From a bacterium (GTDB lineage: Bacteria > Patescibacteriota > Patescibacteriia > Patescibacteriales > UBA12465): a DNA stretch of 64,000 bases. This document shows positions 6,771 through 56,251 of this stretch, one piece after another (within the stretch, counting starts at the first letter, position 1; the number at the start of each line of letters is the position of its first letter). The DNA lies in contig DAOMZR010000001.1 in assembly GCA_035400585.1 (NCBI GenBank), positions 127,347 to 191,346 on the forward strand, in the 5' to 3' direction. A program made the translations under genes and the position numbers. Under the pieces are notes generated by a model. It was not told the DNA's origin, ran no database searches, and saw nothing but the letters and a program-made list of their open reading frames with translations.

Positions 6771-6788
6771 TTTTTTGAATAAATAAAA

Positions 6789-6815
6789 AATATCGGTTTT
6801 GGCCGATATTTTTAT
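6789..6815 (+). terminator. intrinsic terminator
   Basis: 8-bp stem 6789-6796/6803-6810 (aatatcgg/ccgatatt) followed by a T-rich run. Confidence 0.6.
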
Positions 6816-9076: not shown

Positions 9077-10231
9077 ATGGCTAATATTTATTTAGATAAT
9101 GCTGCCACTACCAAAATAGATAAAAGAGTACTAAAAAAAATGATGCCTTATTTTGAAAATAAATATGGTAATGCTTCTTCGATACATTTTATGGGTCAGG
9201 AAAATGATTTAAAAATTGCTGAATGTAAAAAAGAAATAGCTAAAATTATAAATGGAAATCAAAATAATATAGTTTTTACTTCTAGCGCTACTGAAGCCAA
9301 TAATTTGATAATCAAAGGGGTGATGAGGGCTAATCGTGATAAGGGTAATCATTTTTTGATATCAGCCATTGAACACCCTTGTGTTTTGTCTTCAGCTCGA
9401 GAACTTTTAGATGAAGGCTTTAAATTTGACTATATTCCAGTTGATAAGAATGGGGTGGTAATTTTAGATGAATTAAAGAAAAGAATAAAGCCGGAAACAG
9501 TGCTTATTTCTGTTATGGCTGTTAACAATGAAATAGGCTCTATTCAACCAATAATTGAAATCGGTAAAATTGCTAAAGAAAAAAATATTTATTTTCACAC
9601 TGATGCCGTTCAGGCAGTGCCATATTTGAAAATTGACATCAAAAAATGGCAAGCAGATTTTTTAAGTTTGTCAGCTCATAAATTTTATGGACCTCAGGGA
9701 GTTGGTTTAGCTTATGTAAACAAAAACATAAAAATAAGACCAATCATTGTTGGTGGCGGACAAGAAGATGGGCTAAGATCGGGAACTTATAACATGGCCG
9801 GAATTGTTGGTTTAACCGAAGCTTTTAAGTTGGCCTATAAAGAAAGAGATAATTATCTAAAAGAAGTAAGGGAAATTAGAGATTATTTTTGGAAAGAATT
9901 AAAGAAAAATATTAAAAGCATTAGAATAAATGGAGATTTGAAATACAAAACACCTAATAGCTTAAATATTATGTTTGAAGGAATAGAAGGGGAGGCAATT
10001 TTAATTGATTTATCACTCAAAGGAATTCATGTTTCAACCGGTTCAGCTTGTTCTGCTCAAAACTTGAGAGTTTCTTCGGTTATCAAAGCTATTGGAGTAA
10101 GTGATGAATATATGAATAGTAATATTCGTTTTACTTTTGGCAGATATAATAAGAAAAAAGAAGTAGATCAAGTTGTGAAAGAATTAGTGAAAACGGTTGA
10201 GCGCCTTAGACAGTTTAGTTCTATAAAATAA
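9077..10231 (+). CDS. nifS: cysteine desulfurase (NifS/IscS class)
   Basis: PLP lysine motif SAHKFYGPQG and catalytic loop STGSACSA. Confidence 0.9.
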   Translation: MANIYLDNAATTKIDKRVLKKMMPYFENKYGNASSIHFMGQENDLKIAECKKEIAKIINGNQNNIVFTSSATEANNLIIKGVMRANRDKGNHFLISAIEHPCVLSSARELLDEGFKFDYIPVDKNGVVILDELKKRIKPETVLISVMAVNNEIGSIQPIIEIGKIAKEKNIYFHTDAVQAVPYLKIDIKKWQADFLSLSAHKFYGPQGVGLAYVNKNIKIRPIIVGGGQEDGLRSGTYNMAGIVGLTEAFKLAYKERDNYLKEVREIRDYFWKELKKNIKSIRINGDLKYKTPNSLNIMFEGIEGEAILIDLSLKGIHVSTGSACSAQNLRVSSVIKAIGVSDEYMNSNIRFTFGRYNKKKEVDQVVKELVKTVERLRQFSSIK

Positions 10232-10415
10232 AAAAAGGGATTGCTGATGTTTTAGCAATCCCAGTGAGTGGATTTCTTTTTTGTTGAATGAATTTTTGTG
10301 AACCCTAAAATTTGCCTATGAAATGAAATTTGTTGTTGTAAAAATAAAAACCTATATCATGGAACAAACAACGAACCACTTGGTTTAAGAATTTTAAAAC
10401 AAAACCACTCACTTT
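10230..10415 (-). ncRNA. candidate ~185-nt small RNA of unknown family, antisense to the nifS-nifU spacer
   Basis: On the minus strand: -35 TTGACA (10449-10444), 16-nt spacer, extended -10 TGTTAAACT (10430-10422). A 9-bp GC-rich hairpin (10262-10254/10245-10237) is followed by 7 U only in the minus orientation. A 9-bp closing helix pairs 10413-10405 with 10271-10263. Confidence 0.45.
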
Positions 10416-10477
10416 AATCTAAGTTTAACACATAATAATATTTTGTCAAATAAAATTTATAAATTAATTAAAAAAAT

Positions 10478-10930
10478 ATGTCATTGAATTATAGTAAAAA
10501 AACTTTAAAACATTTTCGTCAACCGAAAAATATTGGTGAAATAAAGAATCCGGACGCCGTAGCTGAGGTTGGAAATATGGTTTGTGGCGATCAATTGTTT
10601 TTTAGTTTAAAAGTTAAAGATGAAAAAATAAAAGATATAAAATTTTTATCTTTTGGTTGCGCTTCTAATATTGCTACCGCTTCTGTTATGACCGAGATGG
10701 TGAAGGGGAAAACATTAAAAGAAGCTAAAAACTTTGATTGGAATAAAATTGTTTCCGAGCTTAATGGTTTGCCCAAGCAAAAGATTCATTGCTCCGTTTT
10801 GGCTGTAGAGGGTTTAAAAAAGGTTATTTCTGAATATGAAAAGAAAAGTGAAAAATCTAATAAAATTAAAGAAAAAAATGATAAATCTTTGGCGGGCAAA
10901 GTTAAAAAGGGTAAGATATTAAAAAAATAA
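10478..10930 (+). CDS. nifU: IscU/NifU-type Fe-S scaffold protein
   Basis: Three scaffold cysteines in MVCGD, SFGCASNIATAS and IHCSVLA. Confidence 0.9.
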   Translation: MSLNYSKKTLKHFRQPKNIGEIKNPDAVAEVGNMVCGDQLFFSLKVKDEKIKDIKFLSFGCASNIATASVMTEMVKGKTLKEAKNFDWNKIVSELNGLPKQKIHCSVLAVEGLKKVISEYEKKSEKSNKIKEKNDKSLAGKVKKGKILKK

Positions 10931-13517: not shown

Positions 13518-15596
13518 ATGCTAAGATTTAACGGCAAACAGAAGATGATCGCCTTGTTCTTAGCATTTTTTTTGTTTTTACCTAATTTACGTTTTGTTCA
13601 AGCTCAGGATTTTTCTTTACCAAATGATGATTATTATAATAATCAATGGTATCTAAAAAAAATAGGAGCTAATTATACTTGGGTTTATTCTCTTCGAGGA
13701 GAAAAACCAATAATAGCGGTTATTGATTCTGGCGTGGACATTGATCATCCGGATTTATATAATAATATTTGGGTAAATAAGGGCGAAATTAATAATAATG
13801 GTTTAGACGATGATAAAAATGGTTTTATCGACGATCTTTATGGTTGGAATTTTGTTGAAAATACATCTGATCCTAGACCAAGATTAATTCCAACAGCAAA
13901 TGATGATGGATTAAACCACGGTACAATGATATCTGGCATCATAGCCGCTGAAACTAGTAATGATTTAGGAATAAGTGGCATAGCTAATAAATCAAAAATA
14001 ATGGTACTAAGAGCTTTGGATGAAAAAGGAGAGGGTAAAATTAATGATGTAATTAGGGCTATTGATTATGCCACAAATAATGGAGCTAGTATAATTAATT
14101 TAAGCTTCTCTGGCGAAAATTATAATCAGGGATTTGAAGATGCGATTAGAAGAGCTAATAGGGCCGGAGTTATTATTGTTTCTGCAGTTGGTAATAGTGG
14201 TTTTAATTTAAATAAAAATTCAAGTTATCCGGCTTGTTTTGATTCTTATAATTCGTCTAATTCGTCAAATGCTGTAATTGGTGTAGCTGCTTTAGATACC
14301 ATGGATCAAAAAGCTAGTTTTTCTTCTTATGGGTCGAGATGCGTTGATATTTCTGCTCCTGGAATTAGTTTTTTTTCAACTTCTTTTTATGATTCAGAAA
14401 ATAAAAAATATTCCGAATATCAAGGCTATTGGTCTGGAACATCTATGGCTTCGGCTGTTATAAGCGGAACCTTGGGTTTAATAAAACAAGTTAATCCGAA
14501 ATTAAATCAAAAAGAATTATTGGAAATTTTATTTAAAAGTTCTGACGATATTAATCTTCTTAACCAACCCTACGAAAATCAATTGGGCGTTGGAAGGGTT
14601 AATACTTTTAGTTCTGTTAGATGGGCTGATGAAAAATGGCAGAATTTATCAGGAATGTTTCTAATTTATCCACAAGGAGAGGTTAAAACTTATCAATCAG
14701 AAAAAAATATTTATACTTTAAAATTAAGCGATCGTCGAGGAGTTAGTCTTGGTGGCTTTGATGTTTATGATGATTTATTTCACGGAGGAGTGAATTTGGC
14801 AACTGGCGACATTGATGGCGATGGAATATCTGAAATATTTACTGGAGCAGGAGTTGGTGGAGGGCCACACGTTAGAATTTTTGATATTAAAGGAAATCTT
14901 AAAGGTCAATTTTTTGCTTATTCTCAAAATTTTAGAGGTGGTGTTAACGTTGCAGTTGGCGACATTGATGGCGATGGAATATCTGAAATAGTTACTGGAG
15001 CAGGAGTTGGTGGAGGGCCACACGTTAGAATTTTTGATATTAAAGGAAATCTTAAAGGTCAATTTTTTGCTTATTCTCAAAATTTTAGAGGTGGTGTTAA
15101 CGTTGCAGTTGGCGACATTGATGGCGATGGAATATCTGAAATAGTTACTGGAGCAGGAGTTGGTGGAGGGCCACACGTTAGAATTTTTGACAATCAAGCC
15201 AATCTTAAAGGTCAATTTTTTGCTTATGAAGGAAATTTTTATGGTGGAATAAAAGTAGCTGTAGCTAATATTTATGGGCAAGATACAAAAACAAAAAAAG
15301 AAATTATTATTTCACCTGGAGCTGGTAGATTACCAGAAATAAAAATTTTTGATAGTTTTGGCAAAGAAAGAAAAAAGATAATGGCTTATTCTGATAAGTT
15401 TAAGGGTGGTGTTAATTTATCAATTGGTGATTTAGACAAAGATGGTTTAGATGAGATAATATGTGGAGCTGGTCCAGGTGGCGCTCCACACATTAGAGCT
15501 TTTAATTTTAAAGGTGATTTAGTGGCTTCTTTTTATGCTTTAGATGAAAATTTTTCAGGAGGCGTTTCAGTTTCTTATATCGAAACCTATAATTGA
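13518..15596 (+). CDS. secreted subtilisin-like (S8) serine protease fused to an FG-GAP/VCBS-type repeat propeller
   Basis: Signal peptide. Catalytic triad contexts VIDSGVDIDHPDL, HGTMISGIIAA and GTSMASAVISG. The C-terminus carries at least 5 repeats of GDIDGDG...GGGPHVRIFD. Confidence 0.85.
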   Translation: MLRFNGKQKMIALFLAFFLFLPNLRFVQAQDFSLPNDDYYNNQWYLKKIGANYTWVYSLRGEKPIIAVIDSGVDIDHPDLYNNIWVNKGEINNNGLDDDKNGFIDDLYGWNFVENTSDPRPRLIPTANDDGLNHGTMISGIIAAETSNDLGISGIANKSKIMVLRALDEKGEGKINDVIRAIDYATNNGASIINLSFSGENYNQGFEDAIRRANRAGVIIVSAVGNSGFNLNKNSSYPACFDSYNSSNSSNAVIGVAALDTMDQKASFSSYGSRCVDISAPGISFFSTSFYDSENKKYSEYQGYWSGTSMASAVISGTLGLIKQVNPKLNQKELLEILFKSSDDINLLNQPYENQLGVGRVNTFSSVRWADEKWQNLSGMFLIYPQGEVKTYQSEKNIYTLKLSDRRGVSLGGFDVYDDLFHGGVNLATGDIDGDGISEIFTGAGVGGGPHVRIFDIKGNLKGQFFAYSQNFRGGVNVAVGDIDGDGISEIVTGAGVGGGPHVRIFDIKGNLKGQFFAYSQNFRGGVNVAVGDIDGDGISEIVTGAGVGGGPHVRIFDNQANLKGQFFAYEGNFYGGIKVAVANIYGQDTKTKKEIIISPGAGRLPEIKIFDSFGKERKKIMAYSDKFKGGVNLSIGDLDKDGLDEIICGAGPGGAPHIRAFNFKGDLVASFYALDENFSGGVSVSYIETYN
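14805..15227 (+). repeat. in-frame 153-nt tandem repeat (about 2.8 copies, near-identical) encoding FG-GAP blades
   Basis: ggcgacattgatggcgatgg recurs at 14805, 14958 and 15111. Copies 1 and 2 differ at one base (t/g, giving F/V). Copy 3 is identical for 80 nt and then again for 27 nt. Confidence 0.95.
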
Positions 15597-24819: not shown

Positions 24820-24837
24820 TTTTCTTAAAATATAAAA

Positions 24838-24863
24838 ATAGCCCCAAAAGGGCTATTTTTTTT
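24838..24863 (+). terminator. intrinsic terminator
   Basis: atagccc caaaa gggctat followed by T8. Confidence 0.75.
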
Positions 24864-27116: not shown

Positions 27117-27147
27117 AAAAAAAAGAGGGCATAAGCCCTCTTTTTTT
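27117..27147. terminator. bidirectional intrinsic terminator
   Basis: agagggc ataa gccctct flanked by A8 and T7, between convergent genes. Confidence 0.8.
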
Positions 27148-46314: not shown

Positions 46315-46344
46315 AAAAAACCGCTCTTTAAAGCGGTTTTTTTT
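46315..46344. terminator. bidirectional intrinsic terminator
   Basis: ccgct ctttaa agcgg flanked by A6 and T8, between convergent genes. Confidence 0.75.
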
Positions 46345-56221: not shown

Positions 56222-56251
56222 CAAAAAAGGGCTTTTTCAGCCCTTTTTTTT
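56222..56251. terminator. intrinsic terminator after corA
   Basis: agggct ttttc agccct flanked by an A-run and a T-run. Confidence 0.75.

Follow-up and report, generated by a model that had tools for sequence, protein, structure and literature searches.

The 64,000-nucleotide stretch of patescibacterial contig DAOMZR010000001.1 analysed here (the window) probably carries a small RNA (sRNA) gene in the long spacer between nifS and nifU, two genes of iron-sulphur (Fe-S) cluster assembly. The gene would lie on the minus strand, at 10449-10230, opposite the gap between two co-directional plus-strand genes, and would be made of a promoter, a helix that joins the two ends of the RNA, and an intrinsic terminator. 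All of these sequence features are present at the coordinates listed below and go far beyond chance. The same layout occurs in three lineages of one small clade, in which the arms of the helix differ in sequence and keep their complementarity. We read the unit as a real, clade-specific and dispensable sRNA gene. The full account that we favour, in which such a gene acts most probably in cis as an antisense RNA, is one that we hold with modest confidence; the antisense mode of action, taken by itself, is tentative.

Patescibacteria (the candidate phyla radiation, CPR) have tiny genomes and are uncultured, and to our knowledge almost nothing is known of their regulatory RNAs. In fact, a search of the literature on Patescibacteria sRNAs and on transfer RNA (tRNA)-like RNAs in the CPR returned nothing relevant. 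A non-coding unit of ~185 nt that survives in such compact genomes, and whose layout appears to be kept by compensatory evolution, is a concrete sRNA candidate. As a cis-encoded intergenic or antisense sRNA, the element would fall within an established type of RNA, here in a phylum from which no characterised sRNA is known to us. The finding is otherwise modest, since the element is clade-restricted and dispensable.

A predicted promoter, closing helix and terminator opposite the nifS-nifU spacer

The nifS-nifU spacer (10232-10477) is 246 nt long. Because the median intergenic gap across the window is 42 nt by a crude gene call, this is unusually long, just as the original prediction had stated. 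The features of the spacer and its flanks are as follows.

9077-10231, plus strand: nifS (Aminotran_5; class V aminotransferase / cysteine desulfurase), upstream flank of the spacer
10478-10930, plus strand: nifU (NifU_N scaffold), downstream flank of the spacer
10444-10449, minus strand: -35 hexamer of the predicted promoter, TTGACA
10422-10430, minus strand: extended -10 element of the predicted promoter, TGTTAAACT, with TAAACT at 10427-10422, TG at 10430-10429 and a 16-nt spacer to the -35 hexamer
10414-10416, minus strand: predicted transcription start, ~7 nt 3' of the -10 element, placed by promoter geometry
10396-10413, minus strand: 5' arm of the predicted closing helix, core AGUGAGUGG at 10413-10405, extension to 10396
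10281-10395, minus strand: A/U-rich body, with no conserved open reading frame (ORF), no sequence conserved across lineage types and no supported internal fold
10263-10280, minus strand: 3' arm of the predicted closing helix, core CCACUCACU at 10271-10263, extension to 10280
10230-10262, minus strand: predicted intrinsic terminator, stem-loop 10262-10237 followed by a U7 tract at 10236-10230

A sigma-70-type promoter, TTGACA-16-TGnTAAACT, would start a minus-strand RNA of ~185 nt near 10415. The hexamer, the 16-nt spacing and the extended -10 element had all been called in the original prediction and are indeed present; the site, which has TG upstream, scores 10/12 and is the top minus-strand site between 6000 and 14000. 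Transcription itself and the exact ends of the RNA are what we infer from this geometry and from the terminator at the other end of the unit.

There, the hairpin GGGATTGCT/AGCAATCCC (10237-10262) has an A7 run (10230-10236) on its plus-strand 5' side, and the corresponding U7 tract extends over the final two bases of the nifS stop codon. On the minus strand this arrangement has both the G+C-rich stem-loop and the adjoining U tract of a rho-independent terminator, and the terminator scan reports it on that strand only (9-bp stem, 5 G-C pairs, 8-nt loop, tail TTTTTTT), which bears out the earlier claim of a terminator for the minus strand alone. On the plus strand the hairpin is followed by AGTGAGTGG, with no T run directly after it. 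The nifS hairpin is thereby a minus-only exception to several two-strand terminators of the window. Such a terminator would stop an antisense RNA at the nifS stop codon and let plus-strand polymerase enter nifU.

The two-strand terminators, built of an A run, a hairpin and a T run, lie at 503-528, 6786-6813, 24835-24859, 27120-27145, 46316-46341 and 56223-56249. A second minus-only terminator, at 40950-40978, was considered as a further unit of the same sort and set aside: it is most likely the end of a minus-strand gene, the 3' end of which resembles ribosomal protein L27 by eye.

Between promoter and terminator, the two segments AGTGAGTGG (10263-10271) and CCACTCACT (10405-10413) are the sole copies of this 9-mer in the window, one mismatch allowed. 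They form an inverted repeat that is perfect over 9 bp and imperfect over ~18 bp, and that encloses ~130 bp. The predicted minus-strand RNA would thus begin with nucleotides that pair with those just before the terminator (10262-10230) and close the molecule, and the closed ends would probably shield it from exonucleases. In fact, the nine perfect pairs and three more that had been predicted are found in the minimum free energy (MFE) fold of the 186-nt RNA running from 10415 to 10230 (-43 kcal/mol, z = -4.9), where the closing helix consists of 9 bp, 3 bp and 4 bp and is directly followed by the terminator. This fold is multibranched, and the centroid structure retains only the closing helix. 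The duplex between the first and the last 22 nt of the predicted body has an energy of -19.1 kcal/mol, a value reached by 0 of 3000 dinucleotide shuffles, and among 18,242 pairs of segments with the same spacing, taken from both strands of the whole window, it ranks at the 1.6e-4 quantile.

The layout recurs in three lineages

We collected 127 related loci, designated here by L-numbers. The nearest named relatives of the window are metagenome-assembled genomes (MAGs) of Patescibacteria / Falkowbacteria. Most relatives, with NifS proteins 51-65% identical to that of the window, have a nifS-nifU spacer of 4-40 nt, so a short spacer, and hence an operon, is the ancestral state. In a NifS tree, all carriers of a long non-coding spacer fall into one small Falkowbacteria-like clade. 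Since the carriers form one clade and sister lineages have lost the element, the pattern fits a single gain of a dispensable element. Three types of spacer can be told apart.

Type A: window (spacer 246 nt) and L003, L119 and L124 (spacers 254-256 nt); body 153 nt
Type B: L013 (= L039); spacer 146 nt; body 77 nt
Type C: L016, Falkowbacteria HGW-1, NifS 82% identical; spacer 336 nt; body 210 nt

Across these types the total length of the RNA would range from ~105 to 237 nt, and the arrangement of its parts is the same throughout. The sole strong terminator of the spacer is on the minus strand, adjoins the nifS stop codon and has a run of A5-7 before the hairpin on the plus strand; the best or sole promoter-like site is also on the minus strand; the 5' arm starts at the predicted start and the 3' arm lies directly before the terminator. 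The promoter reads TTGACA-16-TAGACT with TG in L003, where the -10 element is TGCTAGACT and keeps TG and TA...T, and TTGACT-17-TAACAT at the equivalent place in L013 and L016. A motif, ATTAA, directly precedes the 5' arm in all three types, and the order -10 element, 2 nt, ATTAA, arm is nearly fixed, whereas the promoter motif stands at ~14, 35 and 70 nt from the nifU ATG in the three types. As the distance to the arm is nearly constant and that to nifU is not, the promoter motif belongs to the minus-strand unit and not to nifU.

The arms themselves have different sequences and keep their complementarity: UGAGUGG/CCACUCA in the window, UGAGAUU/AAUCUCA in L013 and AACGAAGGA/UCUUUCGUU in L016. 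Positions 3-7 after ATTAA are paired in all lineage types, yet between types the pair at position 7 flips from U-A to A-U and the pair at position 8 changes from G-C to U-A; the arm helix of L016 also has a G.U pair that is valid only on the minus strand. In the terminator stem, a compensatory change from A:T to G:C separates the window (GGGATTGC/GCAATCCC) from L016 (GGGGTTGC/GCAACCCC). The end duplexes of the relatives are also strong, at -16.4 (L003), -11.7 (L013) and -15.3 kcal/mol (L016) with shuffle P <=0.0023, and against the whole-window background they stand at quantiles of 0.0096 (L013) and 0.001 (L016). The paired ends of the sRNA that had been proposed recur in three lineages, and compensatory changes are found in the arms and in the terminator stem; the internal fold shows none.

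At closer range, the comparison of the window with L003 is that of a recombination mosaic. To the left of ~10433 (ppi, nifS and most of the spacer) the window differs from L003 and L006 by ~8%, and to the right of it nifU, zip, ftsW and L25 are 99-100% identical, which we take as recombination between co-occurring populations. In the divergent part, nifS is 92% identical between the window and L003, with fourfold sites only 74-80% identical, and the body of the predicted RNA is ~89% identical by a hand count from the alignment. Promoter, helix and terminator survive this divergence: the 8-bp core of the helix, the hairpin and the -35 hexamer are unchanged. The numbers are small, and the pattern fits constraint on the layout.

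The MAGs labelled 'uncultured Gammaproteobacteria bacterium' among these loci (L012, L013, L015 and L017-L022) have NifS proteins 59-93% identical to that of the window, and their taxon labels look wrong.

A small protein as the product of the unit was considered and rejected, because L003, the closest variant, already fails to preserve the ORFs of either strand. The only ORFs of at least 20 aa in the spacer of the window are one of 35 aa starting with GTG (minus strand, 10412 to 10305) and one of 21 aa (plus strand). Both are shortened in L003, where the former stops after 8 codons. The candidate ORFs of the window (35 aa), L003 (8 aa), L013 (15 aa) and L016 (6 aa) are unrelated, and on neither strand is an ORF conserved across lineages.

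Points against, and other explanations

Several observations weigh against a minus-strand sRNA gene. Its promoter and terminator are consensus matches only, in A/T-rich DNA, and promoter-like sites as a class are not enriched between 6000 and 14000 (32 seen against 37.8 expected). The plus strand folds about equally well (z = -4.5), so folding does not identify the transcribed strand; neither the pairing of the ends nor G.U counts favour the minus strand. In L003 the helix ends in an A.C on the minus strand, where the plus strand would have a G.U. In four type A variants, RNAalifold finds 0 compensatory changes and several broken pairs in the internal fold. The predicted RNA lies 63 nt from the nifU start region and does not overlap it. 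Moreover, the databases searched hold three independent lineage types, the helices of which are aligned across types by their architecture and not by alignable sequence. Finally, the element can be lost: L011 has deleted the segment equivalent to 10271-10413 (body and right arm) and its -10 element is gone, L012 is left with no more than a decaying hairpin, and L125 belongs to the same clade and has no element, as is the case for the majority of relatives with their 4-40-nt spacers. Conservation, on which the original prediction had placed weight, therefore holds for promoter, helix and terminator in three lineages, and fails in most relatives and in three sisters that have lost or are losing the element, which means that the RNA is neither ancient nor essential.

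Could hairpin and long-range helix form a functional structure in the nifS-nifU messenger RNA (mRNA) instead? It would then be a stabiliser of the nifS 3' end, a processing site or a looping out of inserted DNA, and the match to a minus-strand promoter would be incidental, which is easily conceived in DNA of 30% G+C, where promoter-like hexamers are common. The plus strand in fact folds as well or better, its terminal G.U pair in L003 replaces a mismatch on the other strand, and in L011 the hairpin is intact after the loss of the body. The conserved A5-7 run before the hairpin, however, makes sense only as a minus-strand U tract, and in three lineages the right arm sits at a near-fixed distance from the -10 element of the minus strand, the distance to nifU being variable. 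Read on the plus strand, the G.U pair of the L016 helix would be C.A, and in most relatives nifS and nifU are co-expressed across a short spacer that has no such structure. On this evidence a plus-strand function is improbable. The original note had also raised a known plus-strand element as the cause of the hairpin; none was found in Rfam scans of the window and of the spacer.

The losses in sister lineages may rather suggest that an inserted minus-strand gene or the end of an island has been decaying into the present unit, in which promoter and terminator were left behind by a lost cargo gene and have no present function. The nifS/nifU junction is an insertion hot spot with minus-strand genes that bear their own promoter and terminator (see below), and the sisters show stepwise decay, both of which would fit a relic. 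Still, such a relic leaves unexplained why compensatory changes in three lineages have preserved the start-to-terminator helix, and why promoter and terminator are retained when the body has diverged past recognition. The nearest outgroups in the NifS tree have short spacers and not a membrane-protein gene, and tblastn with seven membrane proteins finds no match in the spacers of the window, L003, L013 and L016 (all E>0.2). We consider a relic without function improbable as well. Two specific candidates were rejected: a pseudogene of the minus-strand membrane protein of distant relatives, for lack of a tblastn signal, and a remnant of an integrase promoter, the region upstream of the L126 integrase being unrelated.

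The inverted repeat could also be of another nature, namely the terminal repeats of a miniature inverted-repeat transposable element (MITE) of the Correia or ERIC type. Such elements can carry promoters and form substrates of ribonuclease III (RNase III), and the window shares with them an insert of ~150 bp that lies within an operon, is bounded by inverted repeats (9 bp perfect, ~18 bp imperfect) and has promoter-like sequence nearby. Unlike them, it is single-copy: neither repeat nor body has a second copy in the 64 kb of the genome seen here or in IMG/VR, and among the 127 loci they occur only in orthologous spacers. The arms differ between orthologous loci, and since one locus carries different arm sequences in different lineages, this points to compensatory evolution in situ. 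The 'empty' site of L011 still holds the left arm, so its indel is not an excision bounded by inverted repeats. The promoter of the window lies outside the repeats, and a dedicated terminator is attached. A MITE is thus a very improbable explanation.

The last alternative accepts the sRNA and denies the importance of its position: the RNA would act in trans, as a 6S-like, Y-RNA-like or conventional regulatory sRNA, and its place between nifS and nifU would be incidental. Stable housekeeping and regulatory RNAs typically have paired 5' and 3' ends with a terminator behind them, the unit fits exactly within the spacer and stops short of the nifU start region, and more distant relatives have other self-contained minus-strand genes in the same slot, among them a pair of RNAs of which one is tRNA-like. 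Against it, neither blastn nor nhmmer matches the bodies to one another, and no motif of at least 7 nt is common to the three types; no shared trans seed was found, and short complementarity matches in the window are of low complexity. With its length of ~105 to 237 nt, its unsupported internal fold and its loss in sister lineages, the element makes a trans-acting RNA improbable.

Neither does the RNA belong to a recognised family. At gathering score, Rfam has no match in the whole window or in six related loci; at E<=10, the segment 10150-10550 gives only chance-level matches, none of them to 6S RNA, the L016 spacer gives no 6S match, and E-value scans of three spacers return only chance-level microRNA or small nucleolar RNA matches. 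The resemblance to 6S RNAs that had been noted from size and closed ends finds no support in these scans, in the range of lengths or in an internal fold without covariation, and no family can be assigned. No tRNA or transfer-messenger RNA (tmRNA) was found in the window, where ARAGORN finds 0 such genes and a search for a T-arm motif finds none.

How a sequence-independent antisense RNA might act

If the minus-strand sRNA gene is real, its surroundings suggest a target. nifS is the final gene of a tightly packed run, cca-ppi-nifS, and nifU the first gene of another, nifU-zip-ftsW, with gaps of 4-18 nt between the flanking genes. A scan of the plus strand of the spacer finds no terminator after nifS and no acceptable promoter before nifU. 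Given this packing and the lack of plus-strand signals, read-through from nifS to nifU is plausible, and the two runs look plausibly co-transcribed across the spacer. On these grounds, an influence on nifU expression or on mRNA processing, as suggested in the original prediction, would be plausible. From this layout we infer co-transcription of the flanking genes and an antisense mechanism in which the RNA would pair in cis with the read-through cca-ppi-nifS to nifU-zip-ftsW transcript. The resulting perfect duplex over the intercistronic region would be a substrate of the RNase III type, and/or convergent transcription would interfere with the passage of polymerase; in both cases, expression of the downstream genes would be uncoupled from that of the upstream genes. 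Direct control of translation is unlikely, because the nifU start region lies outside the predicted RNA.

This mode of action, which we put forward as a possibility and no more firmly, would account for the free drift of the body. Being perfectly complementary to the intercistronic RNA, the antisense RNA would not depend on its own sequence, and action of this kind is also suggested by the fact that only promoter, closing helix and terminator are conserved and that the body of 77-210 nt is free to change. If the RNA is cis-antisense, minimal cells would use RNA-level uncoupling within an operon that joins Fe-S assembly, a ZIP-family metal-ion transporter and the cell division gene ftsW. Nature offers a ready-made comparison between variants that carry the element (window, L003, L013 and L016) and variants that do not (L011, L012 and L125).

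A wider reading can be formulated, which we regard as speculative and unlikely to hold in full. The nifS/nifU junction would be a dedicated slot for self-contained minus-strand RNA genes, and the window RNA would represent a new 'architecture-only' antisense class, in which promoter, end-closing helix and terminator are selected and the body is free, splitting the six-gene operon into cca-ppi-nifS and nifU-zip-ftsW at the RNA level. In distant relatives, the slot would hold an undescribed tRNA-like RNA of alanine identity (G3:U70), paired in trans with a partner sRNA. If true, this would suggest a wider small-RNA biology in CPR bacteria tied to Fe-S cluster genes.

Known systems with similar features

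The closest known analogue appears to be GadY of E. coli, a cis-encoded antisense sRNA opposite the gadX-gadW intergenic region that directs the processing of gadXW mRNA by RNase III. In both cases a small RNA gene lies on the opposite strand in the gap between two co-directional, probably co-transcribed genes, and has its own promoter and intrinsic terminator, although the RNA, promoter and terminator of the window are predicted. There is no sequence or Rfam relationship between the two, and the host of the window is a Patescibacterium. Furthermore, the predicted window RNA differs by its start-to-terminator closing helix.

A functional parallel is offered by RyhB of E. coli, which causes discoordinate expression of iscRSUA and is trans-encoded, Hfq-dependent and Fur-regulated. 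As with RyhB, an RNA at the intercistronic region of an Fe-S assembly operon would uncouple the upstream from the downstream cistrons; the window RNA, in contrast, is cis-encoded.

Likeness of architecture is also found in 6S RNA (RF00013), which resembles the window RNA in size (~185 nt), in the pairing of its 5' and 3' ends and in the low conservation of primary sequence. It differs in that the ~180-200-nt rod with a large central bubble is not supported in the fold of the window RNA, which does not match the 6S covariance model at E<=10, varies between ~105 and 237 nt and is dispensable in sisters. The mRNAs of type I toxins (hok, aapA1) are likewise small transcripts whose 5' end pairs with a 3' region beside the terminator, and both have a GUG or AUG start codon inside the 5' arm. 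However, the window unit has no conserved ORF that could encode a small hydrophobic protein, and an overlapping antitoxin RNA is not evident.

Other occupants of the nifS/nifU junction

Insertions at the nifS/nifU junction are frequent among the related loci, and we count it as an insertion hot spot (L015, L022, L045, L051, L082, L086, L088, L095, L097, L099, L113, L115, L116, L126 and L127). Minus-strand genes for membrane proteins of 112-146 aa are present in seven of these (L022, L086, L088, L095, L097, L099 and L116), each with a TTGAC(A/T) promoter of its own and ended by a terminator that adjoins nifS. Tyrosine integrases directly adjoin or overlap the 3' end of nifS in L015 and L126, plus-strand NUDIX-like and hydrolase genes are found in L051 and L127, and the contigs of L018, L020 and L021 break within the 3' end of nifS.

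An unannotated pair of minus-strand small RNA genes occupies the spacer in L065 (171-411), L075 (291-592) and L076 (1764-2001), and the same kind of pair is found downstream of nifU in L118 (~2460-2650). The first gene of the pair encodes a tRNA-like RNA of 68-70 nt. In its acceptor stem of 7 bp (GGGCCNG/CNGGTCC), G3.U70 is the same at all loci and pair 6 comes in three types; its T stem of 5 bp has two compensatory pairs and carries a canonical T loop; and an unpaired linker replaces the anticodon arm. The second gene, under its own predicted promoter, encodes an RNA of 45-55 nt with two blocks complementary to this linker. Partner and linker sequences differ at every locus, and the complementarity is present each time. 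ARAGORN and Rfam recognise neither RNA of the pair. We found no sequence link between this pair and the window RNA, and the window has no T-arm motif.

Two further features of the window itself deserve mention. At 14757-15592, a 153-nt unit is repeated in tandem at least four times (215-nt match, 60-90% identity), apparently within a coding region. At 41346-41396, opposed promoter-like sites overlap and share a -35 sequence, TTGTCAA/TTGACAA, the plus-strand site being TTGTCA-17-TATAAT (11/12) and the minus-strand site TTGACA-17-TATCCT with TG (10/12); this -35 sequence is the same as that of the promoter predicted in the nifS-nifU spacer.

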